DNA from: Gammaproteobacteria bacterium
GTDB lineage: Bacteria; Pseudomonadota; Gammaproteobacteria; UBA1113
Direction of reading: 5' to 3'
Assembly: GCA_965230425.1 (NCBI GenBank)
Contig: CBDDKW010000013.1
Location: forward strand, 117,066-181,065
DNA: 64,000 bases
Below are positions 13,512-52,350 of the stretch, one piece after another. The notes beneath the pieces were generated by a model. It was not told the DNA's origin, did no database searches, and saw nothing but the letters and a program-made list of their open reading frames with translations. How positions within the stretch are numbered: the stretch's first letter is position 1; every line of letters begins with the position of its first letter. The translations under genes were made by a program, and so were the position numbers.

Positions 13512-13696
13512 CAGTGATAATTTAGATCCGTGATAGAAGTTGGCTGATTTTAACTCAGATTGCGGTGGATGTGTATGCTAACTTGACGAATTCCATAGAA
13601 ATTATGTTAGCATACCGATGGTTCGGTAAATTATAATTATAAAAATTGTCCGATCAATGAGAACAATATCCATTAATGTCCAGGGGAGGAATAAAC

Positions 13697-16600
13697 ATGT
13701 CTAAAAAAAGCACAAAAGAGCAACGAAATACGGGTAAGCGGGAGCAGAATCAGGATATAGAGTCTAGTCAGGCTTCCAGTAGTACTCATGAACATCAGCA
13801 TCAAGAAAACAAAACAGGCAAAAAAAATAGACATTCACACCACGGGCATAAAAGTAAAACCTCAAAAAGAAGATCGAGCAAACCAGATTATTATGAAAAG
13901 CTTGAAGATTCTGTAGAAAAAGCCAAGGAGGAAATTACTTTAAGCTTTTCATATAAAGCGAATGATAGATTAATAAATCTTTTGCAAAAGCATTTACAAA
14001 AAATTCCCACTCGTGAGAAAGGCAGAGATTATAGAAAGTGGGCTTTTTGGTATTCAAAAATTTTGAATTACATTGGTGTGACGAGTGAAAATGGAGGGTA
14101 TTTAAGGAAAGCAGAGAAGTTTTACAAAGATGCGGTTGAATATGCGGAAATAGCTCAACCAAGAAATAAACTATCTGAACCAGATGATAGTATAAAGTTA
14201 GGAGCAGATTTAGAATTAACCAGTTCTACTGGTTCATTATCAGAGAAAGTAAAATCTAAGAAAAGTAAAAAAAAATCACTTAATAAATCCTTAAATTCGA
14301 GTAATGTTGAGTATGTATTTTGGCTTGAGTTGGTAAAAACTAACTATATCAGCATTAGGGTCAAATATTTCCCATTTGAAGTTAGTATCGATGAAGCTAA
14401 AAACGACTGTGATAGTAATATTATATATAATGATTTTGCAGACGAGGAGATAAATTTAGAAGCAGGTGCAGTTCGCGTAGCGCTTACTTATCATTTAGCG
14501 ATTGCTAGGCTTTATTTTGAAAGAGGCGAGTTTACCAAATCTTTGAATAAATATCGGGCTATTCTTGACAAGATACTAAACCAATATTTGAATGGAAAAA
14601 AATATCCTATCGTATCACGCAATAAAAACGGCAATGAAATAATTATTAATCTTAATGAAAAGCATTTAGAAGATATAAATAATTTTGAAGAACAAGTTGC
14701 ACAATGGCCGTTTTCATTGTTCAATAATATCGTAGCCGTATTGACTGATTATGCTTATGTTTTGGGTTATTTACAACCCGATGAAGATGTTTTGAAAGAT
14801 GCACTTATAAAAAACTTTAAGTTGATTGTAGAGACACGGTATAAACAAAAAAAAGCACATTATTATCATCGAGATCTTGTATTATATTACTATTCACTTG
14901 GTATCTATGAACTTAATCGCAATAATTTTACTCAAGCAAAAGAAAGCTTAATGAAGGCTTTAGATTATGCAGATAAAATATATACAAACCCTAATCATCC
15001 CATGACAGCAAAAGTTAAGCATTATTTAGCCAAACTATTTTATTTGTTGCGTGACTATAGACTAGCAGAAACCTTAGTCAGAGAGTCACTTTCTGCTAAC
15101 AGAGTTACTTTTGGGCCTGATCATATCTTTGTAGCCTCTAACTTAAGTATGTTAGGCAATATTCAATATGCACGAGGTATGATTACATCCGCTCGAAATC
15201 ATTATGACGAGGCTTTAACGATTTGTAAGCGTAGTTATGGCGAGGGCAGTTTAAATATACGTATGTTATTCAATATGGAGGGATTAGCAAAGTGTTATTA
15301 TAGATTAAATGACTTTGACCGTGCCATTAGTTTGTTAAGCAATATAATCATGATGTATCAATCTACAACACTGTCTGAAAAATATATATACGAGATAAAA
15401 TTGCGTAGAGCAAAAATCCTTGCAAAAAGCGGTAAGTTAGAATTAGCTAAACAAGAATTTCAAAATTTAATGGGGCAAGTGAAAAGTGATGATGCAAAAA
15501 TTAAAGTAGCGTACAAGTTTGGTAGAAGTCAAGAGAAAAACGCTTTAGAAGCATTATTAGTATCTGAAGCACACTATAGGCGTGCATGTGAAATAGCAAG
15601 TGAAAGTGCAAGCACATCTGTATATGGTATGAAGGCAGAAGCACGTTTGAACTTTTTTAAAAATACAGGTAAAAACGGAAAAGATACAGTTAAAAAATGC
15701 TTATATAAGTACGTAACAACAGATTATGAGTATGCAATTATGGCGTTATTACTAGCGTATTATAAAATACCAAGTTGTAAAGGGAATACAAGCATCATCC
15801 TAAATAATCAAGGGAGAGTTCGCATGCGACCAGAGCACGGTAAAGTATCTGAGAGATTTCAGCGCTGTATTGATCACTTGAATGACAATGAATGGTGCTC
15901 ATTTGCGACAACTGATGACTATAACTTAAGTATTGATAGTTTTTATGCGATTGCATTTTTAAATCAAAATAGAAAAGAATTAACTTTCTCATTCCGTGGC
16001 ACTGAATCTAGTATATCGAAAATAATATCAGATTTAAACCCAATGCGTCCATTAGATTTTAAAGGTGATATACGTGCTGACATCCAGCTAGCATCTGGTA
16101 CTGCAGCCACACAAGTTCATACTGCACAAAGATTTATAAATGAGATAAAGTCCGCTTTAGATATTGAAGATGGAAAATCTGACTATCGTATTACTTTTAC
16201 TGGACATTCATTAGGCGCTATGATTGCTGAAGCCATACTTGCATTAGAGTTGGCAAAAAATAACACCTATGGACATTCATCTACACCGAATACCTATTCA
16301 GTAACATTTGAATCTCCAGGTACCAAAGATTTAATTTGTGAAATTACCAATTTAGAAGAGTCGACATTAAAGACATTCTTTTCATCACATAGGTTCAAAA
16401 CATTTTCAGGATTTCCTAACTTAATTAACACTTTAAAACGTCAGACCGATAATCCGCTTTTTATTCCAGTTCAATCTATTGTGAGTAGGTTCGAGCCTCA
16501 AGCTAAAGCAATATTAGGAGTCTATAAAACAAATAAGCACATGCGTATCATATCGACTGTCAAAGGTTATAGTAAGTTTATGCGCCGAACTAAAAGTATT

Positions 16601-17356
16601 AGTGATTTAAAATCCAATGAACAACAAAATATACGAATAAGCAGAAATAATGATTCAGCAATCGACAAAATAAGTTTATTTAAAGAAGTTTTTAAGGTAC
16701 ATCGGCTCTTACTCAAACATGATAGCGAGGCAATGCTATTTTGTTTTATGATTGCACAAATGATACCGGATTATAATGTCGATGCGATGAAAAGGCAAAT
16801 CAATGGACTGCCTGGTTCTCATGCCAGAGTAGTACATTGGCCTACTGGGCCGACTCAACTGTCTGTATATAGTAAGATTGAAAAAAGTAGCAGATTTAAT
16901 CTTGATACAATGTCATTTGAAACGAATAGTTTTAATAATTTTCATTTACGTTGTAATGCCCATTTTATTGTTGATAATTCTTATAATAATACGTTAAAAA
17001 TAGATATATATGCAATAGATTATGATTTTTGGGTTAATGTTAAAGATGTCATTATTAAAATTAAAAAGCAAAAGCATAATTTAACTAGTAATCTTAATAT
17101 ATCTGATCAGGATCATGAGCATCACTTATACTTTCTTTTATCTGAATGTTCTGCAATTCAAACATCTAAAGGTATAGAGATAACGGTTCCTTTATATTGT
17201 TACCCAGATAATTTTAGACGTTTCTTAACTACTAATGAGAGTGAAAAATTTATAGATAGTGTGTGTGCGAAGCCTGACTTATTAAGTGATTTTTGTAAAG
17301 ATGATGAAGCTAGTATTGAAACAACATCAGTAGCACCAACGTCGTCAAATTGTTAA
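13697..17356 (+). CDS. Large TPR-repeat plus class-3 lipase (GHSLG) domain protein; effector-like phospholipase/lipase candidate
   Basis: Very long intact ORF. The N-terminus is basic and His-rich. TPR_12-like repeats span about aa 400-560 (for example AKLFYLLRDYRLAETLVRESL, LGNIQYARGMITSARNHYDEALTI). The lipase_3 pattern is LTFSFRGTES ... ITFTGHSLGAMIAEA (GHSLG near 16201-16215). ATG 13697 follows AGGGGAGGA; the ORF track starts at ATG 13676. Confidence 0.8.
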   Translation: MSKKSTKEQRNTGKREQNQDIESSQASSSTHEHQHQENKTGKKNRHSHHGHKSKTSKRRSSKPDYYEKLEDSVEKAKEEITLSFSYKANDRLINLLQKHLQKIPTREKGRDYRKWAFWYSKILNYIGVTSENGGYLRKAEKFYKDAVEYAEIAQPRNKLSEPDDSIKLGADLELTSSTGSLSEKVKSKKSKKKSLNKSLNSSNVEYVFWLELVKTNYISIRVKYFPFEVSIDEAKNDCDSNIIYNDFADEEINLEAGAVRVALTYHLAIARLYFERGEFTKSLNKYRAILDKILNQYLNGKKYPIVSRNKNGNEIIINLNEKHLEDINNFEEQVAQWPFSLFNNIVAVLTDYAYVLGYLQPDEDVLKDALIKNFKLIVETRYKQKKAHYYHRDLVLYYYSLGIYELNRNNFTQAKESLMKALDYADKIYTNPNHPMTAKVKHYLAKLFYLLRDYRLAETLVRESLSANRVTFGPDHIFVASNLSMLGNIQYARGMITSARNHYDEALTICKRSYGEGSLNIRMLFNMEGLAKCYYRLNDFDRAISLLSNIIMMYQSTTLSEKYIYEIKLRRAKILAKSGKLELAKQEFQNLMGQVKSDDAKIKVAYKFGRSQEKNALEALLVSEAHYRRACEIASESASTSVYGMKAEARLNFFKNTGKNGKDTVKKCLYKYVTTDYEYAIMALLLAYYKIPSCKGNTSIILNNQGRVRMRPEHGKVSERFQRCIDHLNDNEWCSFATTDDYNLSIDSFYAIAFLNQNRKELTFSFRGTESSISKIISDLNPMRPLDFKGDIRADIQLASGTAATQVHTAQRFINEIKSALDIEDGKSDYRITFTGHSLGAMIAEAILALELAKNNTYGHSSTPNTYSVTFESPGTKDLICEITNLEESTLKTFFSSHRFKTFSGFPNLINTLKRQTDNPLFIPVQSIVSRFEPQAKAILGVYKTNKHMRIISTVKGYSKFMRRTKSISDLKSNEQQNIRISRNNDSAIDKISLFKEVFKVHRLLLKHDSEAMLFCFMIAQMIPDYNVDAMKRQINGLPGSHARVVHWPTGPTQLSVYSKIEKSSRFNLDTMSFETNSFNNFHLRCNAHFIVDNSYNNTLKIDIYAIDYDFWVNVKDVIIKIKKQKHNLTSNLNISDQDHEHHLYFLLSECSAIQTSKGIEITVPLYCYPDNFRRFLTTNESEKFIDSVCAKPDLLSDFCKDDEASIETTSVAPTSSNC

Positions 17357-23082: not shown

Positions 23083-23532
23083 TTAACTAATTTTATTAGC
23101 CATAAAAAATATCATGATGCAAATACTAACAAGTAAAACAGTATAGCTTACCCAGAGACTATAGGCATAATAACGACGACTGTGCGATTTATGAGAGGAA
23201 TTAGCAGCGATAGCTTGATAGCGTATTTGTAAATATAAGCAAGCGAACCAAGCAAGTATGACAATAATAAAGCCTAAGGCAGCGACCTTTACCCATAATG
23301 CCGTGACAGGGTAATGCTTAAAACTAATAATGGTAAAGCCGGTAAATAATTGGATTAGTGCTGAGGGTATGATCAGAAACCAGGTGATCTTTTGCAATGT
23401 TGAGTTGGTGGCATTAGTTAGATGATTTCTAGTTCGTAGCCAGTAGATAAATGCATTCAGCACACCGGCGAATAGGCAGGCTGCACTAAGAATATGGATA
23501 GTTTTAATCGTATAATAAAACATCAGTGTCAC
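23083..23532 (-). CDS. Four-TM membrane protein (DUF2269-like), paralogue 2
   Basis: 149 aa with four hydrophobic helices. Its N-terminal IKTIHILSAACLF is similar to the upstream neighbour. Its start abuts the previous gene's stop. Confidence 0.6.
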   Translation of the reverse strand: MTLMFYYTIKTIHILSAACLFAGVLNAFIYWLRTRNHLTNATNSTLQKITWFLIIPSALIQLFTGFTIISFKHYPVTALWVKVAALGFIIVILAWFACLYLQIRYQAIAANSSHKSHSRRYYAYSLWVSYTVLLVSICIMIFFMANKIS

Positions 23533-23975
23533 TACAAAAATGTTAACATGGTTTGCTTCATGACCGCATCATGGGTGATGCAGACAAGAATAACTAAGAT
23601 TATAAAATACATAAATTGATAACCATAATAGAATTTTATGCGACCATTATGCTTGATGCATTTGTTTCGGGTGTTCTTACTCTTTGAATAGGATGCATAG
23701 CTTAATAAAGCGAATGCAATCGTGAGAAAGATGAATGCAGCATTAATCCATGGTGTATGAAATGTATAATGTCGAGGCAGTACTAATAAGGAGCCAGTAA
23801 GGCCCGCAATAAAGATAAGACTCAGCAGTAGACGGTCACAGCGATTACTTAACTGTAATAAGGCAATGCCTTGTTGTTGACTACGGTATAAGAAGAAACT
23901 CGATGTAGCCACCAATCCGATAAGACTGATGGCTAATAAGAGATGAATTGTTTTTATAATTTCTGTCAGTAGCAT
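23532..23975 (-). CDS. Four-TM membrane protein (DUF2269-like), paralogue 1
   Basis: 147 aa with four helices and IKTIHLLLAISLIG. Its start is immediately adjacent to the coxC stop. Confidence 0.6.
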   Translation of the reverse strand: MLLTEIIKTIHLLLAISLIGLVATSSFFLYRSQQQGIALLQLSNRCDRLLLSLIFIAGLTGSLLVLPRHYTFHTPWINAAFIFLTIAFALLSYASYSKSKNTRNKCIKHNGRIKFYYGYQFMYFIILVILVCITHDAVMKQTMLTFL

Positions 23976-24857
23976 CTATAGCCAATAAACGAAAACAAAC
24001 AAGATTAACCAGACCACATCGACAAAGTGCCAGTACCAAGATACGGCTTCGAATGCAAAATGATTATGGGAGTTAAAATCATATTTGAACATACGATACA
24101 GAATAATGATCAAGCAGATAGTACCGACGGTTACGTGTAAGCCGTGAAAACCGGTTAACATGAAGAAGGTTGTACCATAGATCCCTGAACCCAGTGTTAA
24201 TCCTTTATGTAGGTAGGCTTCTCCGTACTCATAGCACTGCATGATCAAGAAGAATATACCTAATAAAATAGTTAAAAATTGGGAAACCAACATAGTTGCA
24301 CGTCGACCTTTTATTAAAGCCCAGTGTGCGACAGTAATGGTTGCACCACTGGTTAATAAAAGCAAAGTGTTAAATGCAGGTATGCCCCAGGTTTCCATAA
24401 CAGAATCAGGACCAACATAGATACCCGCATCAGGGTTCTTTAATAGGGGCCAAGCGGCTTTAAAGTGGGGCCAGAGCAGTAAATGAGTTGATAAATCCCC
24501 ACCACCTAAGGCCGGTACGGAAATAACTCTCGCATAGAAAAGTACACCAAAGAATGCAGCAAAGAACATAACTTCAGAGAAAATAAACCAAGCCATACAC
24601 CAGCGGAAGGAACGATCTACTTGTTTATCACTTAGTAAGCCAGCACGATTTTCCCGAATAACCATGCCAAACCAGCCATACATCATGTAAAATACCATGA
24701 GTAGACCAAAGCCAAATAAGTAGGGGCCAAAGCTGACGCCGTGCAACCAATTGGCTGCGCCAACGAAAAGGCAAAATAAACCGATAGAACCTCTAATAGG
24801 CCAATTACTTGGTTCAGGTAAATAATATCCGCCTGCATGCTGATGAGTCGTGGTCAT
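23976..24857 (-). CDS. coxC: Cytochrome c oxidase subunit III
   Basis: 293-aa 7-TM protein with conserved blocks FFMLTGFHGLHVTVG and WYWHFVDVVWL. Confidence 0.9.
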   Translation of the reverse strand: MTTTHQHAGGYYLPEPSNWPIRGSIGLFCLFVGAANWLHGVSFGPYLFGFGLLMVFYMMYGWFGMVIRENRAGLLSDKQVDRSFRWCMAWFIFSEVMFFAAFFGVLFYARVISVPALGGGDLSTHLLLWPHFKAAWPLLKNPDAGIYVGPDSVMETWGIPAFNTLLLLTSGATITVAHWALIKGRRATMLVSQFLTILLGIFFLIMQCYEYGEAYLHKGLTLGSGIYGTTFFMLTGFHGLHVTVGTICLIIILYRMFKYDFNSHNHFAFEAVSWYWHFVDVVWLILFVFVYWL

Positions 24858-25040: not shown

Positions 25041-26636
25041 CTACCAGAGTGAATAATCCTTATCATCTGGTGAGCTTTCTTGCATCATATATTTCACTGC
25101 GGCTTTAATTTCCGCATCAGTACATTCTGGGCAATTACCTTGTGGAGGATGATTGCCGTAACCTTCAACTGAGTGTACGTAGGCAGTTGGGAAACCTGCT
25201 TTGATAATCGGTTGCCACTGAGCTAAGTCGCCTAATTTAGGTGCACCTTTATAGCCATTATTGTGGCAAAGACTACAATGTGCGTCATAGACTTTCTTAC
25301 CGTCAGCGATGGTTAAAGGTACGATGGTTGATTTAGGTGGTGCTACCACACTAGGATTGCCGCCGCCCTTAGTTGCAGCAACCATATAGTCTACCGCCTG
25401 CTTAATTTGTTCATCGGTACAGGTTAAACAGGTACCTTTTGCTGGCATACCGCCAATTCCATGAATCGCATTTTTGTATACTTGCTCGATACCTAATTGC
25501 AAAATGGGTTCCCATTGGGATGCACTACCTAAGGTAGGTGCTCCACCCGCACCGGTAGTATGACAACCAGAGCAATAAGTATCATACACTGCTTGACCTG
25601 GGCCACCAGAAGATTTCTTCAATGGTGGTGTTTTACTTTGAATAGATTTTAAGTAGATGGCTATAGCCTGCAAATCTTGGTGAGATAGGTAACGTAAGCT
25701 ATCGTGATTAACTTCTAACATTGGGCCTTTAATATTACCACCACCAATCATTTTATCTTCGGTGAAGACTTGGACGACTTTATCTGTTGGTACATCTTTC
25801 AAGTTCGATTTAGAAATATTAGGCGCGTAGTAACCACCAACTTTTGCACCAGTAAATTCATATTTCCTAATAGGTGCACCAAGTGGTAATGAATCCGATA
25901 AAATATTATAGGAAGGTGAGTGACACATAGAACAGTGACCCAAACCTTTAACTAAATAAGCGCCGCGATTCCATTGTGCTGAATGATTGGGATCTTCATG
26001 ATAAGTACTCGCTTGTGAATGGAAAAACAATAACCGCCAACCTATTTGTAAGATACGTTGGTTAAATGGCCAAACCATTTCATCAGTACGATTTTCTTGA
26101 TGCACGGCTGGTATACTATCTAAGTATGCTTTTAGTGCTTTTAGATCATTGGGTGTAATTTCGGCGAAATATAAATAAGGAAATGCAGGATAATAGAAGT
26201 GACCGCTGGGTGAGACACCGTGTTGCATGGAACGATCAAATTCTTTTTGTGTCCAATTACCAATACCTGTTTCTTTATCAGGAGTAATATTCGGCGTGTA
26301 AAGGGTGCCGAAAGGTGTAGTCATGGGTAAGCCACCAGCAAAAGGTTTACTGCCTTTTTTCAAAGTATCTGTATGGCAGGCAATACAGTCACCGGCTTTG
26401 GCAAGATACTCCCCACGCTTTATAAGGTCGCCATTAGGGCCAGAGGTATCGACTTTAGGGTAGGTGGGGTAAAAAGGGGTTTCTTCATGGGCTGCCTGGT
26501 CGGCGAGCTTGTGCATATTTTTACGTACGCCTAACAGCGTAATCGTCATAGAAATCGCTACAAGAATAACTACTACAGCCGCAATACTAAAGACAAGCTT
26601 TTTATGTTCCTGTAATTTCCGAATGATTGCTTTCAC
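25041..26636 (-). CDS. Membrane-anchored tetrahaem cytochrome c (two N-terminal haem domains fused to two cytochrome c5-like domains)
   Basis: N-terminal TM helix and four CxxCH motifs (CIACH, CSMCH, CSGCH, CSLCH). Each of the last two is followed by a c5-type pattern (GTCLTCTDEQIKQAVDYM, GNCPECTDAEIKAAVKYM). Confidence 0.85.
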   Translation of the reverse strand: MKAIIRKLQEHKKLVFSIAAVVVILVAISMTITLLGVRKNMHKLADQAAHEETPFYPTYPKVDTSGPNGDLIKRGEYLAKAGDCIACHTDTLKKGSKPFAGGLPMTTPFGTLYTPNITPDKETGIGNWTQKEFDRSMQHGVSPSGHFYYPAFPYLYFAEITPNDLKALKAYLDSIPAVHQENRTDEMVWPFNQRILQIGWRLLFFHSQASTYHEDPNHSAQWNRGAYLVKGLGHCSMCHSPSYNILSDSLPLGAPIRKYEFTGAKVGGYYAPNISKSNLKDVPTDKVVQVFTEDKMIGGGNIKGPMLEVNHDSLRYLSHQDLQAIAIYLKSIQSKTPPLKKSSGGPGQAVYDTYCSGCHTTGAGGAPTLGSASQWEPILQLGIEQVYKNAIHGIGGMPAKGTCLTCTDEQIKQAVDYMVAATKGGGNPSVVAPPKSTIVPLTIADGKKVYDAHCSLCHNNGYKGAPKLGDLAQWQPIIKAGFPTAYVHSVEGYGNHPPQGNCPECTDAEIKAAVKYMMQESSPDDKDYSLW

Positions 26637-26908: not shown

Positions 26909-27739
26909 ATGTACCGAAAATTGGGACGAATTTCCGTATTATTTGCTTCATTTTTATTCAGTTCAGTTTGTTATGCGCTACAACCGATGAATATGCCAAA
27001 AGGTGTAACGCCCATCAGTCATCAGATTTATACTTTGCACATGGTGACATTGTATATTTGTTGTGCGATTGGTGTGGTTGTCTTTGGTGTGCTGTTTTAT
27101 TCCTTAGTGAAGTACCGAAAGTCAAAAGGTGCACAGGCTGCAGAATTCCATGAGCATCTGTGGGTAGAGATTATTTGGACAGTCATCCCTACTTTAATTT
27201 TGGTTGGGCTTGCTATCCCGGCGACTATTGTGCTTGCGCATATCCATAATACTGAAGAATCTGATTTGAATATTAAGGTCGTGGGTATTCAGTGGAAGTG
27301 GGAATATGAATACCTGGACCAAGGTATTAAATTCATAAGTAATCTGTCTACACCTCAATCGCAAATTCAAAATCAAGAGCCGAAAGATCAATGGTATCTC
27401 TTAGATGTGGATAATCCCATGGTAGTGCCAATTAAGAAGAAGATTAAATTATTGGTTACCGCTGATGATGTTATTCATGATTGGTGGGTCCCCGAGTTGG
27501 GGGTTAAACAAGATGCTATTCCTGGCTATATCAATGAGAATTGGTTCTATGCTGAAAAACCAGGGGTATACCGTGGTCAATGTGGCGAGCTATGTGGGGT
27601 TTACCATGGTTTTATGCCGATTGTGGTTAAAGCAGTACCACAAGCAGAATTTGATGCTTGGGTGAAAGAACAACAAGCGAAGAAAAAAGCAGCAGCGAAT
27701 AAAGCGGCAAAGCAGATAGCCAAGCAAGCTGCCAGATGA
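26909..27739 (+). CDS. coxB: Cytochrome c oxidase subunit II
   Basis: Signal peptide plus two TM helices. The CuA site is DVIHDWWVP ... CGELCGVYHGFM. Confidence 0.9.
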   Translation: MYRKLGRISVLFASFLFSSVCYALQPMNMPKGVTPISHQIYTLHMVTLYICCAIGVVVFGVLFYSLVKYRKSKGAQAAEFHEHLWVEIIWTVIPTLILVGLAIPATIVLAHIHNTEESDLNIKVVGIQWKWEYEYLDQGIKFISNLSTPQSQIQNQEPKDQWYLLDVDNPMVVPIKKKIKLLVTADDVIHDWWVPELGVKQDAIPGYINENWFYAEKPGVYRGQCGELCGVYHGFMPIVVKAVPQAEFDAWVKEQQAKKKAAANKAAKQIAKQAAR

Positions 27740-27788: not shown

Positions 27789-29388
27789 ATGAGTGATGCA
27801 ATAACCGCAGGTGCCAGTGACGAACACCATGATCATGACCACCATGGTCCAGCAAAAGGCATTAAACGTTGGATTTTTACCACTAACCATAAAGATATTG
27901 GGACTTTGTACCTTTTCTTTAGTTTGATCATGTTTTTTTGTTGCTGGTGGTATGGCATTAGTCATTCGAACTGAGTTTATTTGAACCAGGTCAAGTCTTA
28001 GTAAATCCACAGTTCTTTAATGAAATGACCACATTGCATGGCCTTATTATGGTATTTGGTGTAGTGATGCCCTCAATGGCAGGTTTAGCTAACTGGATGA
28101 TACCCTTGATGATCGGTGCACCTGATATGGCTTTACCACGGTTAAATAATTGGAGTTTTTGGTTATTACCTTTCGCCTTTGCGATTCTATTAAGTACTTT
28201 GTTTATGAGTGGTGCTGCGCCAGATTTTGGCTGGACATTCTACGCGCCGTTGTCTACAACTTATGGACCTAAAAGCACTGACTTCTTTATTTTTTCAATA
28301 CATATCATGGGTATTTCATCTATTTTAGCCGCACTTAATATTATTGTGACCATTTTCAATATGCGCGCGCCAGGGATGACATGGTTTAAATTACCTATCT
28401 TTGTTTGGTCATGGGTCGTAACGGCGTTTTTACTATTAGCCGTGATGCCGGTGCTTGCGGGTTGTGTCACCATGATGTTGATGGATAGACATTTCCATAC
28501 TAGTTTCTTCAATGCCGCGGGTGGTGGTGACCCCGTGTTATTCCAGCATATTTTCTGGTTCTTTGGTCATCCAGAGTGTATATCTTAATTTTGCCTGCCT
28601 TCGGTGCGATTTCTGAAATGGTGCAAACCTTTGCACGTAAAAAATTATTTGGTTATCACGCCATGGTATTTGCAACCGTCATTATCGGTTTAGTGGGCTT
28701 TATCGTGTGGATGCACCATATGTTTGTTACGGGTGCGCCTTTGGATGCTCAATTATTCTTTATGTATGCCACCATGTTTGTCGCAGTACCAACAGGGATT
28801 AAAGTGTTTAACTGGGTAACTACTTTATTTAAAGGGTCTATTAGCTTTGAAACACCTATGTTATTTACCTTGGGTTTTTAGTCTTATTCACTATCGGTGG
28901 TTTTTCCGGCTTGATGCTGGCGATTGCGCCTAGTGATTATCAATATCGTGATAGCTACTTTGTGGTGCGCACTTCCACTATGTCTTGGTATCTGGATCCT
29001 TGTTTGCGGTGATGGGTTCAATTATTATTGGCTGCCTAAGTGGACTGGCCGTATGTATAATGAAACCTTGGGTAAGTGGCATTTTTGGTTAACTGCTATT
29101 AGTATGAATATTACTTTTTTCCCTATGCATTTTGTTGGTTTAGCGGGTATGCCGCGACGGATCCCTGACTATGCATTGCAATTCACTGACTTTAATCAGT
29201 TAGCATCTATTGGTGCATTTATCTTTGGTTTTTCACAATTGATTTTCGTCTATATTATCTTGAGAGCTTGTATGCACAAGGGTAAGCAAGCCACAGCAAA
29301 AGTATGGGATGGTGCACGTACACTAGAATGGACAGTCCCTTCACCAGCGCCTTATCATACTTTTGAAACACCTCCTAAGGTTGATTAG
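27789..29388 (+). pseudogene. coxA: Cytochrome c oxidase subunit I, disrupted by at least six 1-nt frameshifts
   Basis: Four ORF fragments (27789-27974, 28025-28588, 28576-28881, 28924-29388), plus short stretches read in other frames, jointly encode a full and highly conserved CoxA. Conserved blocks include [26 protein letters not shown](V)[30 protein letters not shown] and GMPRRIPDY. The frame changes are located in the findings. Confidence 0.85.
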
Positions 29389-29391
29389 TAA

Positions 29392-29553
29392 GATTCCCCG
29401 CAGCGGCTGCGGGCACTTTACGCTTAGGGATGCTTAAGGAGAGTCAGCGTAGATCCCCCTTAAGTTGATGTCGCGTGAATTTGGTTTGCGCAGGCGCAAT
29501 ATTACTAGGAAATAAAATCCCCGAGACTTGCTTCGGGGATTTTTATTGCCCCT
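29392..29553 (+). repeat. Copy 2 of the roughly 160-bp dispersed repeat, inserted between coxA and ctaG
   Basis: Aligns with 4208-4367. The 3' half also matches 36147-36220 and a fragment at 51968-51990. Confidence 0.65.
29514..29545 (+). terminator. Terminator-like hairpin inside repeat copy 2
   Basis: AAAATCCCCGA-GACTTGCT-TCGGGGATTTT forms an 11-bp stem followed by TTA. Confidence 0.55.
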
Positions 29554-29580
29554 CATTGTGAAGGGGAAGGCAAATACGTG

Positions 29581-30174
29581 ATGACAGATAATAACAACAA
29601 CACAAGCACACAAAACCATAAACGTCTTATCATTAAATTAGTCATCGGCGTTGTGTTTATGTTTGGCTTTGCTTATATGTTAGTGCCTTTATATACCTTA
29701 GTGTGTAAGCAAGTGGGCATCAATGGTCGCTCTAGTAATACTGCTGATGCTGTGCCTACAGGCATGCAAGTGGATAATTCACGTACGGTTAAAGTTGTTT
29801 TTTCTACCATGGTGCATGGGCGACTTGGATTTGAGTTTAAGCCGCAAACACATGATGTACATATTCATCCTGGCGAAACCAAAATGGTTTATTTTTATGC
29901 ACATAATGAGTCGGGACATGGGATCACTGTACAGGCTATTCCAAGTATTACCCCCGATGAAGCTGCTAAGTACTTAAAGAAAACCCAATGCTTTTGCTTT
30001 ACTCAGCAATATTTCTTCGATAATGAAAAAGCAGATATGCCAGTGTATTTTTATGTGGATCCACATTTACCTAAACAAGTGAAAGAAATTACCTTATCTT
30101 ATACTTTGTTTGATGCAACCCCCTTTGAGAAAAAACAAGAGCATTTCACCAAGGGGCGGGTTGAATTGCAGTAA
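29581..30174 (+). CDS. ctaG: Cytochrome c oxidase assembly protein CtaG/Cox11
   Basis: N-terminal TM helix, LVPLYTLVCK and the copper-binding CFCF motif. ATG 29581 is directly preceded by an in-frame GTG at 29578. Confidence 0.9.
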   Translation: MTDNNNNTSTQNHKRLIIKLVIGVVFMFGFAYMLVPLYTLVCKQVGINGRSSNTADAVPTGMQVDNSRTVKVVFSTMVHGRLGFEFKPQTHDVHIHPGETKMVYFYAHNESGHGITVQAIPSITPDEAAKYLKKTQCFCFTQQYFFDNEKADMPVYFYVDPHLPKQVKEITLSYTLFDATPFEKKQEHFTKGRVELQ

Positions 30175-30392: not shown

Positions 30393-31160
30393 GTGGACAT
30401 CATTATGGATGTTACGTATTTCAATTGGCGCAAGCATAGATATTGCGTGCAAATTACTTTCTGGCCCACCTTGGTGTGTGCGGTGTTGTTCTGTGTATTG
30501 ATTTTATTAGGGTTTTGGCAATTACACCGATATCATTGGAAGCAGCAATTGGTTGAACAATACCATAGCCGCTTACAACAGGTGCCTATTCCGTTAGGTC
30601 AAGCCATGCGGCAGGGCGAGCTGCGTTTTCAGCACGTATTTGTGCAAGGTCATTATCGTAACGAAGACACATTATTGTTAGACCATCGTATGCATGATCA
30701 ACGTATAGGATATGAAGTATTAACGCCTTTAAAGATTAAAGGACAAAACAAATTATTATTGGTAGATCGAGGTTGGTTGGCTAAACAATCAATGCCGGAT
30801 TTGCCGGCCATTACAAAGGTGGAAAATCTGCAAACTATCAGTGGCTATATTAAGTTGTTAGATGAAAAAGACTTCATTCTCGGTGAGAATACGCTACAAC
30901 CACAACAACGACCCTTAGTTATGCAACGCATTGACCTTGAAGAATTGTCTACGTTGACAAAGGAACAGTACTTACCATTTATATTACGATTAGATGCGGA
31001 CCAGCCACATGGGTTCGTACGTGATTGGCAAGTTGTAAATATGTTACCACAACGACATATGGCTTATGCGGTGCAATGGTTTGCCATGGCGTTAGTATTA
31101 CTTATTGCCTATGGTTGTTTATGTTGTAAAAGAATAGAGGAAGCATATCAAAGTGAGTAA
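30393..31160 (+). CDS. SURF1-family cytochrome oxidase biogenesis protein
   Basis: Two terminal TM helices, LGFWQLHR..WK and YAVQWFAMA motifs. The start is ambiguous (GTG 30393 or ATG 30405). Confidence 0.8.
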   Translation: MDIIMDVTYFNWRKHRYCVQITFWPTLVCAVLFCVLILLGFWQLHRYHWKQQLVEQYHSRLQQVPIPLGQAMRQGELRFQHVFVQGHYRNEDTLLLDHRMHDQRIGYEVLTPLKIKGQNKLLLVDRGWLAKQSMPDLPAITKVENLQTISGYIKLLDEKDFILGENTLQPQQRPLVMQRIDLEELSTLTKEQYLPFILRLDADQPHGFVRDWQVVNMLPQRHMAYAVQWFAMALVLLIAYGCLCCKRIEEAYQSE

Positions 31161-31713
31161 GCAAATCAAATCAGGAAAGCACGTTACCTTAATTGTATTA
31201 GCCTTTGCTATCCCTGTTTTCGCTGCATGGCTATTATACCATTTCCATGACCACTTTAATTTGAAAACAACCAATCAAGGCATTTTGTTCAAACCCGTAT
31301 TTAGCGTTGCACGCTATCTTCCACAGGATGAGGGACAACCGCATTGGCGCATACTGTATTTTTCTAAAGATTGCTGTCAGCAGAACTGTGAGCATATGTT
31401 GCATAATTTACATCAATTACGCCAAGCCCTAGGCAAGGAACAAGACCGAGTACAGTTAACATTATTAACCCAAAGCCAATGCAATGTCACAACTTATAAT
31501 GACATCCAACATTTAGCTTTATCTAAGAATCAAATGAATAGCTTTAATCATTTCATTGCTGAGAATGAATCTGCAGCACAAGTAACAGATGATAGTAAAA
31601 TTTATATTATTGACCCACACAGTAATATGGTGCTGTATTACTCTGGGCAAACTGATCCAATGAATATACTAAAAGATATGAAACATTTATTGAGGGCATC
31701 ACAAATTGGCTAA
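31153..31713 (+). CDS. Hypothetical membrane-anchored protein conserved in position within the cox assembly cluster
   Basis: One N-terminal TM helix and a Cys-rich segment DCCQQNCEH. It overlaps surf1 and ctaA by 8 nt each (translational coupling). GTG start. Confidence 0.55.
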   Translation: MSKQIKSGKHVTLIVLAFAIPVFAAWLLYHFHDHFNLKTTNQGILFKPVFSVARYLPQDEGQPHWRILYFSKDCCQQNCEHMLHNLHQLRQALGKEQDRVQLTLLTQSQCNVTTYNDIQHLALSKNQMNSFNHFIAENESAAQVTDDSKIYIIDPHSNMVLYYSGQTDPMNILKDMKHLLRASQIG

Positions 31714-32761
31714 ACGCTCTTGGTTATCAATACTGGCATTATTTGCCTGCTTCTTTGCCTTGGGGGTTATTGGCTTAGGCGCATTCACACGTTTAATGGA
31801 TGCTGGTTTAGGGTGTCCTGACTGGCCAGGTTGTTATGGGCATATTACTGTACCGCTTAACGCTCAAGCGCGCGCGGCAATCAATGCAATCTTTCCAGCG
31901 ACACCTTTAATCGTTTATAAAGCTTGGGCGGAAATGATTCACCGGTATTTTGCAGGTAGCTTAAGTATTCTTATCGTCATTTTATTAAGTATAGCCATCT
32001 ATACTCGTAAACAATATGATAATAAGACAACAATCCAATTGATGAGCTTTCTAATTTTCTTGGTGGCATATCAAATTATTTTAGGTCAACTTACAGTCAC
32101 ACTACAATTATTACCGATTATTGTTACTCAGCATTTAATGGGTGGATTTTTGATTTTTTCTACTTTGTGGGTTGTGTATTTATATAATCGCCCTCTGTCA
32201 TTTGCTAAGAATATCCCCACTATTGCAACGAGATATAAAATCATGGCGGCTATTGGCTTAGCATTGGTATTGATGCAGATTTTTCTAGGTGCTTGGACTA
32301 GCACAAATTATGCGTCATTAAGTTGTCCAGATTTTCCCTTTTGTCATAATGATCACATGTATATGCCGATGCACTTCCAGGCAGCCTTTAATTTACTCTC
32401 CCCTACAGGTGTAAATTATGATGGCGGAGTGTTACCCGATGATGTGCGAGCAACGATTCAAATGACTCACCGTTTAGGTGCCGTGGTCGTGACTCTTTAT
32501 CTCGTCTTTTTGGCGGCAATGATTGCATTAAAACTTAAATATCATGCACGCTTACAGCAGGCTATGTATGTAATGCTAGGTTTGTTGTTTGTGCAATTAT
32601 GTTTAGGCATTTCGAATATTATTTTTAAATTACCTTTATTAGTTGCTGTTTGCCACAATCTAACAGCAGCTTTGTTATTAGTCTCCGTGATTACGGTGAA
32701 TTTCTTAATGTATTGTACAATGGATAAAATTAATGGAAACACAAATGAATACAGCCGTTGA
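31706..32761 (+). CDS. ctaA: Haem A synthase COX15/CtaA
   Basis: 8-TM protein with [15 protein letters not shown] and paired His motifs. Apparent TTG start. Confidence 0.85.
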
Positions 32762-33653
32762 TGTTGAAAAATGTGAAAACACAGGAGCAAGTTGGCGTGA
32801 CTATTTAGAGTTATGTAAACCACGCGTGGTGTTGTTGATGATCATTACTGCCATTGTTGGTATGTGCTTAGCAACCACTCATGCAGTGCCGCTACAAATC
32901 TTAATTTTTGGCACATTAGGTATTGCTTTCGCTGCGGGTGGTGCGGCCGTGGTTAATCATGTGGCCGATGAGCGTATTGATCGGAAAATGGCAAGAACCA
33001 AAAATAGACCCATTGTCCAAGGTAAAATTTCTCCACGCAATAGCATTATTTTCGCCAGTGTATTAGCTATTACGGCAATGACTGTATTAGTCATGTTTGT
33101 TAATACCTTAACTGCGGTGCTAACCTTTGCATCACTGATTGGCTATGCAGGTGTCTATACTTTATATCTTAAACACGCCACACCACAGAATATTGTGATT
33201 GGTGGTATTGCTGGAGCAGCACCGCCTTTATTAGGGTGGACTGCAGTCACAGGCCAAGTATCGGCTCAAGCCTTATTGCTGGTATTAATTATCTTTGTTT
33301 GGACTCCGCCGCATTTTTGGGCCTTAGCTATCTATCGTTTAGAGGATTATGTGAAAGCCAATGTGCCCATGTTACCCAAGACTCATGGAGTGAAATATAC
33401 AAAATTAAATATTCTGTTATATACAATTTTATTATTGTGTGTCAGTGTTTTGCCCTTTGTTATCCAAATGTCTGGATTAATTTACTTATTAACAACTTTA
33501 GTGATTGACCTACGTTTCTTATACTGGGTGTTAAAGCTATTTAAAACTGAAGATAAGAAAGTCGCGCTAAATACCTTTAAATTTTCAATTTATTATTTAG
33601 GTATTTTATTTGTTGCCTTACTAGTCGATCATTATTTCTACTTGAATATCTAA
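32733..33653 (+). CDS. cyoE: Protohaem IX farnesyltransferase (haem O synthase)
   Basis: UbiA-type motifs [19 protein letters not shown] and TPPHFWALA; follows ctaA. Confidence 0.9.
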
Positions 33654-33670: not shown

Positions 33671-34348
33671 ATGTCAACTGATGAACAACGCAAACGTAAT
33701 AATAAAACACTGGCAAGAATCGTCATTGTCTTTGCAGTTATTGCTGGGATCACCATGTATTATGGGAAAATTACCAAGCAAGCAAAGCCCAATACAGCCG
33801 TTAAAAATGTACAGATAGACGGTACCTGGTTACCAGAAGCGAAGAGTATCAGTGATTTTTCTTTTACTGATAATAAGGGCCAAGCATTTACTCAGTCAGA
33901 TTTGACAGGGCATTGGTCTTTTGTATTTTTTGGGTTTACAAATTGCGGTTATGTATGTCCAACTACAATGGCTGAATTGGCAAAGATGTATAAGACTCTT
34001 GAAAAAGAATTACCAGCCAAGGAAATGCCGCAGATAATTATGGTATCTGTGGATCCAGCCAGAGACTCTGTAGAACGTATGAATAGCTATGTCACCGCTT
34101 TTGACCCGCATTTCATTGGTTTACGTGCTAGTGCAGAAAAAACTTTACCTGTAGAAAAGGAATTACATATTGTTGCCGTGAAGATGCAACAGGAGCAAAG
34201 TACTAAAGATCAATATACAATTAATCACAGTGCTGAAATTATGTTATTTAATCCACAGGGTCAGTTACAAGCTTATCTATCATTCCCGCACACGGCAGAG
34301 CAGATGGTCAAAGATTATAAAGCGGTGTTAGCCGCGACTCATAGTTAA
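33671..34348 (+). CDS. SCO1/SenC copper chaperone
   Basis: TM anchor, thioredoxin fold with FGFTNCGYVCP (CxxxCP) and a downstream INHSAEI His. Confidence 0.85.
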   Translation: MSTDEQRKRNNKTLARIVIVFAVIAGITMYYGKITKQAKPNTAVKNVQIDGTWLPEAKSISDFSFTDNKGQAFTQSDLTGHWSFVFFGFTNCGYVCPTTMAELAKMYKTLEKELPAKEMPQIIMVSVDPARDSVERMNSYVTAFDPHFIGLRASAEKTLPVEKELHIVAVKMQQEQSTKDQYTINHSAEIMLFNPQGQLQAYLSFPHTAEQMVKDYKAVLAATHS

Positions 34349-34357
34349 GGTAGTACC

Positions 34358-34828
34358 ATGTTGAAGAGAATACTCTGTATCATTTTTATTTGTGCCAGCC
34401 TATTGCTGAGTGCTTGCAATGATACGCATAAGAGTTACAGCGATTTAAACGGTGATCGGCATAGTTTTGCTAATACGAATGGTGATTGGACTGTTTTGAA
34501 TTATTGGGCAAGTTGGTGTAAAGGCTGTATCGAGGAAATACCTGATTTAAATGCCATGGCAGCAGATTATCACGGTAAGCATATCCAAGTCATCGGCGTG
34601 AATTTCGATAATTTATCACTACATGATTTAGAGCAAGCAGTAAAAAAAGCGGGCATACAGTTTCCTGTGTTACGTGAGGACCCGCGTCAGGACCTAGGCT
34701 TACAGAGTATTGATGTATTACCTGCCACATTTATTATCGATCCACGTGGCCAGGTCGTGAAAACCTTATTAGGTCCCAGTACCGAATATCGCATTATTCA
34801 AGCAATACGTGAAGCAGGCAATGGCTGA
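34358..34828 (+). CDS. TlpA-like thioredoxin-fold lipoprotein
   Basis: Lipobox LLLSAC and the WASWCKGC redox motif. Confidence 0.8.
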   Translation: MLKRILCIIFICASLLLSACNDTHKSYSDLNGDRHSFANTNGDWTVLNYWASWCKGCIEEIPDLNAMAADYHGKHIQVIGVNFDNLSLHDLEQAVKKAGIQFPVLREDPRQDLGLQSIDVLPATFIIDPRGQVVKTLLGPSTEYRIIQAIREAGNG

Positions 34829-35252
34829 TAAAGCACAATTAAAAATATTTATTATTATGTTAATGCTGGTGAGTGCCGTCGCAGGGTTTATCGTATCCTT
34901 GTATTTTCATTCTCAAAAGGCGCAGCAAGCAGCGCCTAGTATCGTAGAGCAACAACGTACCTATCATTATCCCATTTCCTTCGTAGCACAACTCACAGAT
35001 GATCCTCATGCAGGTGAAAAAATATTTCATGAATTTTGTGCCTCCTGCCACGGTAAGCAGCCCTTGATCGAAGTCCATGCCCCACGCATTGGCCATAAAA
35101 AAGAATGGGAACAACGCCGTCATTTAAATATGGATACCTTATTATTGATTACACGTAATGGTGTAGGCCCTATGCCCGCCCGTGGTGGTTGTTTCGAGTG
35201 TAGCGATGAACAGCTAAAACAAGCGATCCAGTATATTTTTGATAATACTTAA
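34821..35252 (+). CDS. Membrane-anchored monohaem cytochrome c5-like protein
   Basis: TM helix, CASCH haem motif, GPMPARGGCFECSDEQLKQAIQYI c5-type tail. ATG 34821 is preferred over GTG 34809. Confidence 0.75.
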   Translation: MADKAQLKIFIIMLMLVSAVAGFIVSLYFHSQKAQQAAPSIVEQQRTYHYPISFVAQLTDDPHAGEKIFHEFCASCHGKQPLIEVHAPRIGHKKEWEQRRHLNMDTLLLITRNGVGPMPARGGCFECSDEQLKQAIQYIFDNT

Positions 35253-39308: not shown

Positions 39309-42300
39309 ATGAGCACAATAACTGTGACTAATCAAGCTAATAATACCAGCAAGGATGTGTCCTTTGATAAGGGTGCGGTGAATACTTTGCGAGTTAATCC
39401 GGGTGAAACCTATGATTTAACCAATATGCAGGGTAATGTAGCGGCACTTGCGAGAGTTGATGGTACGAATCACGTGATGTTACAAGCTGATGATGGTACC
39501 CAAGTCATTTTTGAGAATTTTATGTTACACCATGGTTCCAGTAACGATGAAAGTCCAGTTATTAAAGTGAACCATAGTGATAATGAGCTTTCTGATACGA
39601 ATGCTGAGAGCGCTAACCAATCCAATTATAATTATATCTTGCCTGCTGATTTTGTTACAACGGCATCTACAGCAATGAATATTCTGCCTGAACAGGCAGG
39701 TGAGATTAAACAAGTCGTGCATAGTCAAATCGATGCCAGTTTTATTAATACTGCGGATGCAGTGGTTATGCAACATGTGGATAAGAATGATTTTAATAAT
39801 GTGAATCTTTCACGCTTTATGGATAAGAATCCTCAAGCCGCGAATGATGAAGCAGCACAAGTAAAAGATATAAATACAGAAGATGCATTACCAACAGATG
39901 ATACTCAAGCAAATGAGGCGCCTATCAGTATTAATGTAGCAGATTCAGGCGTTGAAAAAGTAATCGCAAATGAAACCTATTATCTGCGTCATGAAGGTGA
40001 TGGTTGTAAAGTTTATAAAGTCGATATTGCTGATGGCCAGAGTACGTTAACTGAAATTGCAAATTTTCCTTCTGCGGAAGTCGGTTTGTATCATGCGCAG
40101 ATGGCGATTAGCTCAGATGGCTCAACACTTTATATTACTGGTATCAATAATAGCCACAAAGCACCAATGATAGGAAATTTATTTTCCTATGATTTAAACA
40201 GTGGTGAAATTACCCATTTGGTTACTGATAACCGGTTATATTATACTAATGCGTTGGCAATAAAGAATGTTGATGGTAAAGAATATCTTTATATGACAGA
40301 TAATCATCATGATAATATTGCCGTTTATGACTTAGCAGATATTACTAATGGTAGCAAGTTCCCTGATACCCATGTTTATGGTGGGTTCACTGTTGGTGAT
40401 GAATATGTACGATTCTCTGGTGGCGATATCGCTTTTGATGAAGAAGGCAATCTTTACGTATTAACTAACGATCAAGGGTTACTCAAATTAGATCTGGAGG
40501 CGCTGGAAGCTGAAGTTGTTAATCCTTTGCCAGGAAAGAATTTTAGTGGCTTGAGTTATGATCCCATTAGTCAGTCATTCCTTGTGTCAGGGGGCTATGG
40601 TGATTATTTTATTGAAATCGATAAAAATGGTAAGATTTTGGGTGAGATTAAAGCTACTATCGATGGAGAACCTTTTGCATTAAACACAGGTGATGCGGCT
40701 AGCCATCTAGATATATCCTATAAAGTGCCGGTACAATTTTCCGTTGCTGAAAACAGCGGTGAACGTATCTCAGAATTTACTATTAAATTAGGTGATCAAG
40801 CAGGACTGGAGCTGCGTTATAATGGCCAAGCATTAAAAGATGGTAGCATCATCCATCTCGATGCCAATGCTGATACGTTGCCAGCAAAAGTAATATTTAA
40901 TCCTGATACGCAAACATGGACATTTGATTTGTTAGTTAATGACGATGGTAGTCAGAATCTGGCAGCAACTAATGGTTTAACTGACTTAACAATTGATGGC
41001 AGCTTTACTGTACACCTTGCTGACCCTAGCACTGAATTGTTTAACCTAACAGTGACTAGCACGACGACTGCAAATAATTCAGATGTGCCTGTTTCAACGG
41101 GTGATTTAGTAGTTACTATTGATGCGGCAACGGGCGCATATGATGCAGGTGAGATTGCAATTGTTGCACCTGAGGGTATAGCAACTCAGCATACAGTCAC
41201 GGAACACTATTATGTTGATCATACTGATGATGGCTGCACAATTTATCGAACTAGCATCGACGGTACGCATACTGAACTAACTAAAGTCGTAGATATCCCT
41301 GAGTCCATATCGGGTATGAATCTTGAGCAAATTGCTGTGAGCAGTGATGGTACAAAGATTTATATGACCGGTGGTGCTAGTAGTGGTGGAAAAGTAGGTA
41401 GCTTAATGGCCTATGATATTGCTACAGGTGAGATTGAATCTATCGCTAATGGTATACTGCCACGTACAACCACTATGACCCTTAATGTAGAAAATGGTAA
41501 AGAATTCTTATACATTTCTGATCATAAAAGTGGCACCATAGTTGCCTATGATACGAGTACTTTTTCTGACGGTAAGTTAATGCCTGCAGAGACCTTCGGT
41601 CCGTTCACCTTGGCAGATGGTAAGCATGTGTTTTTTAACGGTGGCGATATTGCTTTTGATGGTGATGGAAATCTCTACGCCGTTAGTATCGGTACAGGCT
41701 TGGTAAAACTTGATTTGAATACCTGTGAAGCGGAAATTGTTAATCCACTGGCTGATTACAATCACTTGAGTGGCATCAGTTATGATTCAGCAGATGATAG
41801 CTTTATTTTATCTGGCCAAGCCAATGACCATTTTATTCATATCGATAAGAGTGGGAATATATTAACACCTATAGCTGTGACAATGAATGATGCTCCCTTT
41901 ACCTTTGCTACGGGTGATATGGCATCAACAGTGAACACCTATTATGCTATTCCTGTAGATATTAATGTGGATAGCAATGGCCAACATATTGCTAGCTTTG
42001 GGATCCAAGTACCTAATAGTACTGATGGTAATAGTGTGCCTGAGCTACGTTATAATAACACCACAGTCAAAGAAGGGGACATTATTAAGCTTGATGTGAA
42101 TGGTACGACGATGCCGGCAGAAACAAGCTATGATGCTGCAAATCAAGCTTGGTCTTTTAATTTGCTAGTGAATGAAGATGGTAGTACTAATTTAGCAGCA
42201 GCAAATGATTTAACACAATTGAAAATTAGTGGTGACTTTACTTTACATGCAGGTAATAACCAAAATCTACCAACTGATATTGTTATTACAGGTACGACTT

Positions 42301-51456: not shown

Positions 51457-52050
51457 AGTTACTCCTCATCCATGCTTAGGTTACCAATGTAAGTGTAATG
51501 AATAATTTGTTAAATGAAAACCACATCACGAGAGCTTTGTTATGACTAGCTGGTGTAAGGTTTATGGGCGATTCGACTGGTTTAAACCTAATCATTTTTT
51601 CGCTAAATCAGTCGAAAATCAGCACTGCTATAGTGATGGCGGTTATTTCTATATTGATGACAAGCACATTGCAAATGATAAAGATGGTACGATATTGGCC
51701 ACTACCAAGCCAAAAATGGGCTAATTTTAGACTATTTTTTGTTTTTTTAAGTAACTTTTTCGTGATCTGAATCATAATATACGTTAGAATGACCAAGCTA
51801 TAGCTCTGATTCGTTCGGTACTTCTCTTTGTATTTTAGTGGCGGTTCCTTACTTTCCTTGTCTAGGCATTTATAAGCGAAGCCCCCGGTATTGCTGGGGT
51901 TGCATTGCGTGATAGGGGTTTCTCAAGGGGGAGGATCGTGATTTTCCACTTTGAGTGCCGTCGTGCGAACTTAGTTCGCACAGGCAATCCAAACAAAAAA
52001 CAATACGGGTTTATCCGTAGTTGTTTATTTTAACTGAAGGAAATCTGACG

Positions 52051-52350
52051 ATGAGTCAAAACAAAATCTATGTGGGGAATCTGTCATACGATACAGATGA
52101 AGCTCAACTTGAAGCTTTTTTCAGCCAATATGGTGATATCAAAGAAGCAAAATTAATTATGGACCGTGAAACAGGACGTTCAAAAGGTTTCGCCTTTATT
52201 ACTTTCGGCAGTGATCAGGAAGCACAAGCAGCTATATCAGCAGCCAATCAAACTGAATTACAAGGTCGTACCATCAAAGTGAATATGGCTAAAGATGATA
52301 ATCGTCGTGGCGGCGGTGGTCGTGGTGATGGCGGCGGTCGTCGTTGGTAA
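52051..52350 (+). CDS. RRM-type RNA-binding protein with an RGG tail
   Basis: RNP-2 IYVGNL, RNP-1 KGFAFITF, and a C-terminal RRGGGGRGDGGGRRW. ATG 52051 follows GAAGGAAA; the ORF track extends to TTG 52021. Confidence 0.85.
   Translation: MSQNKIYVGNLSYDTDEAQLEAFFSQYGDIKEAKLIMDRETGRSKGFAFITFGSDQEAQAAISAANQTELQGRTIKVNMAKDDNRRGGGGRGDGGGRRW

Follow-up and report, generated by a model that had tools for sequence, protein, structure and literature searches.

Six single-base frame breaks confined to coxA within an otherwise unbroken cytochrome c oxidase gene cluster of a gammaproteobacterium

The stretch analyzed here (the window) comprises 64,000 nucleotides (nt) of a gammaproteobacterial assembly (GCA_965230425.1, contig CBDDKW010000013.1, positions 117,066 to 181,065 of the forward strand), with a G+C content of about 38%. 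Within it lies a complete gene cluster for a haem-copper oxidase of the A family, made up of coxC, a gene for a multi-haem cytochrome c, coxB, coxA, ctaG, surf1, a PA0111-family gene, ctaA, ctaB, sco1, a TlpA-like gene, and a gene for a small cytochrome c. Our subject is coxA (ctaD), which encodes subunit I. As deposited, this gene runs through seven frame segments, with two extra and four missing bases. The open reading frame (ORF) listing divides it into ORFs of 61, 187, 101, and 154 amino acids (aa), the longest being 187 aa, and shows two short bridging ORFs in the region (28911-29012 and 28985-29092); no single uninterrupted ORF of about 530 codons is present in the deposited sequence. 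To place the indels, every possible position was scored against a profile hidden Markov model (HMM) of 119 homologues. The gene and its lesions are listed below in window coordinates, a slash marking the site of a lost base.

27789-29388, plus strand: coxA/ctaD, cytochrome c oxidase subunit I, recognized from the ORF fragments, the repaired translation, TIGR02891, and 83% identity to the homologue P0001.
27933-27939, plus strand: indel 1, a T7 run with one surplus T (+1); the best HMM score is obtained on deleting any T of the run.
27976-27978, plus strand: indel 2, TTT with one surplus T (+1), where GAGTTTATTTGA becomes GAG TTA TTT GAA (ELFE); the HMM optimum lies at 27976-27978.
28574-28577, plus strand: indel 3, an A or G lost in CCAGAG/TG; repair gives HPEVYILILP, and an A or a G after 28574-28576 tie for the best HMM score.
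28867-28879, plus strand: indel 4, one base lost at an ambiguous position in TTGGGTTTTT, HMM scores being tied across 28867-28879.
28965-28968, plus strand: indel 5, one base lost in GTGGT/GCGCAC (the third base of Val393 or the G of GCG) according to the HMM scan; repair gives YFVVAHFHYV.
29019-29024, plus strand: indel 6 (position revised), one T lost in CAATT/ATTATT; repair gives ...FAVMGSIYYWLPK, with 1056.5 bits at 29021-29023.

A preliminary description of this DNA had claimed six single-base frame breaks in coxA, and the claim is borne out by the ORF listing, by conceptual repair, by tblastn, and by the HMM scan. Taking one T off the T7 run at 27933-27939 and one off 27976-27978, and adding one base each near 28576, 28879, 28967, and 29018-29023, yields a 1602-nt ORF of 533 aa with no internal stops. 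When the nearest intact homologue (P0001) is used as the tblastn query, the alignment makes the same frame jumps that the repair implies. The frames of the fragments, taken as start coordinate modulo 3, run 0, (1), 2, 1, 0, 2, 1; this is exactly the series predicted by the frame arithmetic of that description (+1, +1, -1, -1, -1, -1). Every lesion measures exactly 1 bp, and there are no multi-base indels. The first five sites had also been placed correctly, the HMM scan agreeing within a few ambiguous bases (A or G at site 3; 28867-28879 at site 4). The sixth has to be moved: it had been put in GGGTT at 29014-29018, where repair creates F411 and N412, each found in 0 of the 119 homologues, whereas a repair at 29021-29023 (AATT/ATT to ATT TAT) scores about 5 bits higher (1056.5 versus 1051.3 bits for 29018).

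Repair restores conserved sequence at the individual sites. ELFEPG, recovered at indel 2, is near-invariant among homologues; columns 255-264, around indel 3, are invariant in all 119; and at indel 5 the haem a/a3 histidines H395 and H397 return. The simplest reading of indel 4 is a T6 run cut to T5 at 28875-28879: the deposited letters read G_GGT_TTT_TAG (28871-28881), and the repaired ones encode LGFLVLFTIGG. Consecutive indels lie 39, 598, 303, 88, and about 55 nt apart. As a mere remark on six points, this spacing would suit a read that was poor at its start and decayed toward its end.

The best CoxA matches include entries labelled "Legionellales bacterium," and Aquicella proteins share 74-75% identity. 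"Candidatus Berkiella," considered for its G+C content, draft contigs, and amoeba host (PMC4759071, PMC9803151), showed no link to the window. The closest available relatives (loci L081, L084, L086, L087, and L088) come from Legionellales-type genomes or metagenome-assembled genomes, with 79-83% CoxA identity and the same gene order and orientation. Repaired CoxA matches the equivalog model TIGR02891 (CtaD_CoxA) over its entire length (1-504 of 504) with 699.3 bits, the cut-off being 670.75; this applies to the conceptual repair and to none of the deposited ORFs. The repaired protein contains the motifs TLHG, GHPEVY, WMHHMF, and AHFHYV, the columns surrounding them being invariant in the homologues, and it retains all ligands, namely, the haem a and a3 histidines, the three CuB histidines, and the cross-linked Tyr in HPEVY. 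The first reading of the DNA was correct in stating that the catalytic histidines and signature blocks are still encoded and that there are no nonsense codons.

Against the 119 homologues, none of the 172 invariant columns is altered in the repaired protein, and of the 231 columns conserved at 97% or more a single one is; intact homologues give leave-one-out means of 0.24 and 0.98, respectively, for these two classes. Residues unseen in any homologue number 2 to 4, against a median of 4 in intact proteins; with the GGGTT repair there are 4, 2 of which are products of the misplaced sixth repair. Compared with a more distant gammaproteobacterial set, its differences are conservative, typical of the clade, and common to the intact relative L081. 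Repaired CoxA is as conserved as any intact homologue, with no sign of relaxed constraint. Of the features expected in a pseudogene, coxA shows the disrupted frame, with its six frameshifts, and neither an excess of substitutions at constrained positions nor stops. Its lesions are single-base length errors only, without a substitution signal, as an artefact would leave them.

The partner genes coxB, coxC, ctaG, surf1, ctaA, ctaB, and sco1 (5.7 kb), which serve no purpose in the absence of CoxA or haem A, contain no frameshift and cover their family models fully. The preliminary description had proposed weighing substitutions in the repaired protein, aligned to its orthologues, against those in the neighbouring genes; there, too, no invariant column is changed. 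Its statement that the neighbouring cox genes are intact stands insofar as all are unbroken with their models covered, but coxB, although open, lacks its haem-c domain. This is the sole structural change among the dependent genes, which show no other co-decay. The members of the cluster and a nearby hairpin are as follows.

23976-24857, minus strand: coxC, subunit III, intact (PF00510, 3-255 of 258; 0 of 25 invariant columns changed; same place and strand in relatives).
25041-26636, minus strand: multi-haem c-type cytochrome of 531 aa, divergent from coxB (PF13442 and PF00034; a 523- to 530-aa orthologue in L084 and L086-L088).
26909-27739, plus strand: coxB, subunit II, transmembrane part and CuA domain, 276 aa, open (PF02790 and PF00116; TIGR02866, 3-201 of 202).
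29514-29547, plus strand: strong terminator-like hairpin with a U-run in the coxA-ctaG spacer, from the predicted fold.
29578-30174, plus strand: ctaG/cox11, intact (PF04442, 1-148 of 148; 0 of 21 invariant columns changed).
30393-31160, plus strand: surf1, intact (PF02104, 2-205 of 205).
31153-31713, plus strand: PA0111-family redox-active disulfide membrane protein, a conserved operon member (NF058629, E = 9.6e-19 and 67.9 bits, under the curated cut-off of 230 bits; PF26971 in orthologues).
31706-32761, plus strand: ctaA/cox15, haem A synthase, intact (PF02628, 2-321 of 322; 0 of 41 invariant columns changed).
32733-33653, plus strand: ctaB/cyoE, haem O synthase, intact (PF01040, 2-247 of 250; 0 of 54 invariant columns changed).
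33671-34348, plus strand: sco1/senC copper chaperone, intact (PF02630, 2-133 of 134).
34358-35252, plus strand: end of the cluster, with a TlpA-like thiol-disulfide oxidoreductase (34358-34828) and a small c-type cytochrome (34809-35252), both assigned by Pfam; the same genes occur in relatives.

CoxB stops at residue 276, within a Lys/Ala-rich linker, and the C-terminal CxxCH cytochrome c domain of about 110 aa is missing. Among 85 related loci, 84 have that domain on CoxB, as do three additional close relatives (L086-L088), where the protein is 358-391 aa long. No copy of it was found elsewhere in the window, and its relocation within the window is accordingly rejected. The CuA core is perfectly conserved, and TIGR02866 is matched end to end. 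In the cores of CoxA, CoxB, and CoxC, as in its gene content, the cluster belongs with the caa3/aa3-type oxidases of the A family; the intact relatives examined all have the fused haem-c domain and are caa3-like, whereas CoxB here, without a fused cytochrome c, is aa3-like. The 3' end of coxB is too divergent from its relatives at the nucleotide level for the deletion junction to be placed or dated. The change may be an older, tolerated shift from a caa3-like to an aa3-like enzyme, or it may be the first step of real decay.

Frame damage in the window is confined to coxA. Pfam was applied to virtually every other ORF of at least 90 aa; of these 58 ORFs (53.8 kb) none is split, and their domain matches span the models nearly end to end. 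No frame break was detected in them, although their homopolymer runs number 84 at a length of at least 6, 17 at 7 or above, and 5 at 8 or above. Under a uniform process, the chance that six of six events fall in coxA is about (1600/55449)^6, or 6e-10, and with 53.8 kb of unbroken ORFs alongside, a general homopolymer-error or mutation process is rejected; the earlier view that general sequencing error is not an obvious explanation holds. All six breaks lie in one 1.6-kb gene and the other ORFs are clean; the cause therefore acted locally. Within coxA, two of the six indels are in runs of 5 or more and four in runs of 3 or less, and 9 of the 11 runs of at least 5 are untouched. The positions of the indels do not match length-dependent replication slippage in vivo. 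At the edge of the window, on the minus strand (48-1256), lies a DDE_Tnp_1 transposase gene (402 aa), and six contigs of the source assembly encode this identical transposase; it is a multi-copy insertion sequence element that the assembler resolved.

Uninterrupted coxA genes are found in L081, L086, L087, and L088. In L084 (GCA_021325575.1, JAJPGW010000010.1, 10001-11607), coxA is split into 265 and 263 aa and its neighbours are intact; a single G has been lost (GG to G) in the TGG codon of Trp256 (TTCTG-TTTTTC), a site different from the six described here. At a further locus, L085, on a contig of a metagenome-assembled genome (ERZ26871208, contig_248469_np1212), many genes are split, those for COX1, COX2, COX3, and the multi-haem cytochrome c among them, and this is an example of assembly-wide indel error at the same locus. 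The "np1212" in the contig name may indicate nanopore data. With L084 and L085, other public assemblies of the clade contain the same kind of break. For an independent assembly, a scan of genome contigs gave nothing nearer than relatives at 67-73% identity, exact-protein look-ups with CoxB, Sco1, and the 187-aa fragment matched no contig, scans of metagenome contigs for exact DNA gave no match to the locus, and the collection holds no sister strain: 16 of the 17 window proteins found are singleton 90% clusters. The 90% cluster of the 187-aa CoxA fragment consists only of CoxA fragments from other assemblies.

The explanation that we favour, and hold with modest confidence, is that the deposited consensus is wrong at all six frame breaks, the errors being limited to a local patch. 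Single-base length miscounts would be confined to about 1.1 kb (27.93-29.02 kb), a patch probably built from reads that were too few, noisy, or unpolished; it could be a gap-filled stretch, or one derived from long reads, in an otherwise accurate assembly. The organism would then carry an ordinary functional ctaD/coxA in a complete aa3-type oxidase gene cluster. We favour this explanation because the repaired protein is conserved, the lesions are all 1 bp, there are no stops, and the partner genes are intact; on these grounds, local assembly error is the favoured one among the options listed in the preliminary description. The indels, their tight clustering, and the lack of other decay are there to be read in the DNA; that their origin is technical, and not in the cell, is what we infer.

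Expected numbers of substitutions point the same way. In mutation-accumulation experiments with seven bacteria, the indel rate is 10-36% of the substitution rate (PMC4978911, Table 1), and six neutral indels should therefore be accompanied by about 17-58 substitutions. In simulations on coxA, 18 random substitutions spare all invariant residues with P = 0.006 and 30 do so with P < 2e-4, and stops arise in about half to two-thirds of the trials. Under neutral decay, moreover, the probability that five further indels would all fall in coxA rather than in other aa3-specific genes is about (1600/7333)^5, or 5e-4. That all anomalies occupy one contiguous stretch fits a single technical cause. Consensus made from sparse or noisy reads looks exactly like this, with miscounts of one base, residues unaffected after the frame is repaired, abrupt edges, and undamaged flanks. 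The resolution of identical 1.2-kb transposase repeats hints at error-prone long-read data: such repeats are rarely resolved by short reads alone, and the typical consensus error of long reads is a 1-bp indel.

Several observations weigh against a consensus error. The rest of the window is clean, in its 58 other ORFs as in their 84 runs of 6 or more, and the error must be strictly local; with the remaining 62 kb in order, a bad patch is something deduced from the sequence. Only two of the six indels fall in runs of 5 or more. In addition, coxB, which adjoins coxA, has truly lost the haem-c domain that all the intact relatives examined possess; a base-calling error cannot do that, and the loss could be taken for real decay of this enzyme. 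Genes called "frameshifted" through residual indels in long-read, pyrosequencing, or gap-filled assemblies resemble the present case in that the changes are 1 bp only (here two sit in T runs of at least 5, the others in short runs) and in that the protein is otherwise perfectly conserved, free of stops, and damaged in one patch; L084 and L085 are similar. They differ in that their errors usually scatter across the assembly, whereas 53.8 kb of neighbouring coding sequence is clean here.

The alternative that survives best is a real and extremely recent pseudogenisation, which we regard as a serious but tentative possibility. In this scenario, the aa3-type oxidase would have been abandoned, perhaps for other terminal oxidases; the six 1-bp indels would have arisen through an indel-heavy regime such as mismatch-repair deficiency, and the same decay would have taken the haem-c domain of CoxB. 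The frameshifts stand in the public record, where the pieces are called as separate genes, coxB lacks a domain that L086-L088 and all but one of 85 related loci possess, and the rest of the window gives no sign of sloppy assembly. The loss of a low-affinity aa3 oxidase is also plausible in intracellular Legionellales-like bacteria. Yet this scenario must accommodate 172 invariant positions free of substitutions and the absence of stops and multi-base indels (P <= 0.006 under any measured wild-type bacterial indel:substitution ratio), seven functionally dependent genes that are intact and constrained, and the failure to find a second pseudogene in 64 kb. In-vivo slippage climbs steeply with run length, but four of the six indels are in runs of 3 or less, and nine longer runs in coxA are untouched. 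Nor does the window support the reductive evolution in a host-restricted lineage that had been suggested earlier: its 58 other ORFs are unsplit, and it has signalling genes, transporters, and an intact ccm cytochrome c maturation operon at 7.5-13.5 kb. Young pseudogenes in bacteria newly restricted to a host, such as Shigella, Salmonella Typhi, and Mycobacterium leprae, resemble coxA in being conserved respiratory or housekeeping genes that are frameshifted and still recognizable. Such young genes usually show a lesion or two, of mixed type, and old pseudogenes carry many lesions together with substitutions and stops. Six 1-bp indels without substitutions at constrained sites, next to intact partner genes, follow neither pattern.

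Alternatively, the indels could be real and stem from one event in vivo, a tract of error-prone repair or recombination about 1.1 kb long that left a cluster of indels alone in a coxA that had worked up to that point. Both the clustering and the absence of general decay would follow from one cause, as the six lesions occupy one contiguous stretch without substitutions at constrained sites. However, we know of no bacterial polymerase or repair pathway that produces about 0.5% single-base indels across 1 kb without substitutions, there are no flanking repeats or mobile element junctions, and a single technical cause accounts for the same facts more simply; we consider such an event improbable. 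Had it killed a fully constrained coxA in a lineage already without the CoxB haem-c domain, the case would amount to localised frameshift hypermutation in bacteria, an outcome to which we give little credence.

The weakest proposal, that the indels are real and tolerated because ribosomal frameshifting and/or transcriptional slippage restores full-length CoxA, is hardly credible, since next to no full-length protein would emerge from six serial events (two +1, four -1). What speaks for it is local context. Site 1 is a T7 run; at site 4, G_GGT_TTT_TAG presents a canonical X_XXY_YYZ -1 heptamer followed by a 0-frame stop, so that a -1 slip would read LGFLVLF; and site 2 puts ATT_TGA in frame, loosely like the +1 site of prfB. 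Sites 3, 5, and 6 have no slippery motif, however, and such motifs are limited to site 1 (T7) and site 4 (G_GGT_TTT); the heptamer at site 4 is probably a coincidence of the shortened T run. The four close relatives with uninterrupted coxA have plain ORFs, and no shift is conserved. Slippage rescue in endosymbionts needs long runs, of about 9 or more. The homopolymer frameshifts of Buchnera and Blochmannia, for which rescue of this kind has been proposed (PMC5574713, PMC5009743), resemble the present ones in affecting T or A runs, as with the T7 here in an AT-rich Legionellales-like genome, but four of the six sites here lie outside runs, and the sites are not conserved in relatives. Transcription introduces indels at about 1e-5 per nt, a rate that goes up only in long runs, and no restoration of the frame was observed even in Buchnera (PMC5574713), which counts against recoding. 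The mitochondrial cox1 of Perkinsus marinus (PMC2952869) is a homologous gene with multiple frameshifts and a conserved protein; there, every shift occurs in an AGG/CCC context, whereas the six contexts here share no motif and the shifts go both ways. The slippage rescue offered as an option in the first description is, for practical purposes, effectively excluded.

If the breaks are artefacts of the consensus, annotation would credit this genome with no working aa3 oxidase, and errors would enter the metabolic reconstructions of a Legionellales-like lineage that is poorly sampled; the matter is then one of annotation hygiene. Substitutions at invariant columns set against the indel count, together with the intactness of dependent partner genes, provide a cheap flag for such cases that needs no reads. 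If the breaks are real, they offer an unusually fresh snapshot of the abandonment of a respiratory oxidase, odd in its indel-only spectrum and still an ordinary gene inactivation. Either outcome, artefact or inactivation, is a known kind of thing.

Some details of the cluster deserve mention. The coxC gene stands outside the coxBA-ctaG operon, in divergent orientation and downstream of the multi-haem cytochrome c gene, an arrangement kept in L084 and L086-L088. We rejected a deletion of coxC between ctaG and surf1; relatives have no coxC there either, and the intact copy lies at 23976-24857 on the minus strand. Directly downstream of coxC, at 23083-23975 on the minus strand, are two tandem genes for small DUF2269-like membrane proteins (149 and 147 aa), possibly an uncharacterised accessory subunit of the oxidase. 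One or two small ORFs occupy this place in L084 and L086-L088, with a DUF2269 match in L087 only. The coxA-ctaG spacer (29389-29577) is about 190 nt long and includes a second hairpin, of GC pairs, at about 29397-29413; the corresponding gap in relatives is mostly 0-13 nt, and about 120 nt in L087. The spacer between ctaG and surf1 measures 219 nt.

Elsewhere, an Rfam scan of the window gave no match, and four further genes encode large or eukaryote-like proteins that could be secreted effectors of a Legionellales-type organism. They are a protein of 1226 aa with tetratricopeptide repeats (TPR) and a class-3 lipase domain (13676-17356), one of 1282 aa with weak Kelch/Rib-like matches (39309-43157), a 109-aa RRM_1 RNA-binding protein (52021-52350), and one of 741 aa that weakly matches dual-specificity phosphatases (52795-55020).

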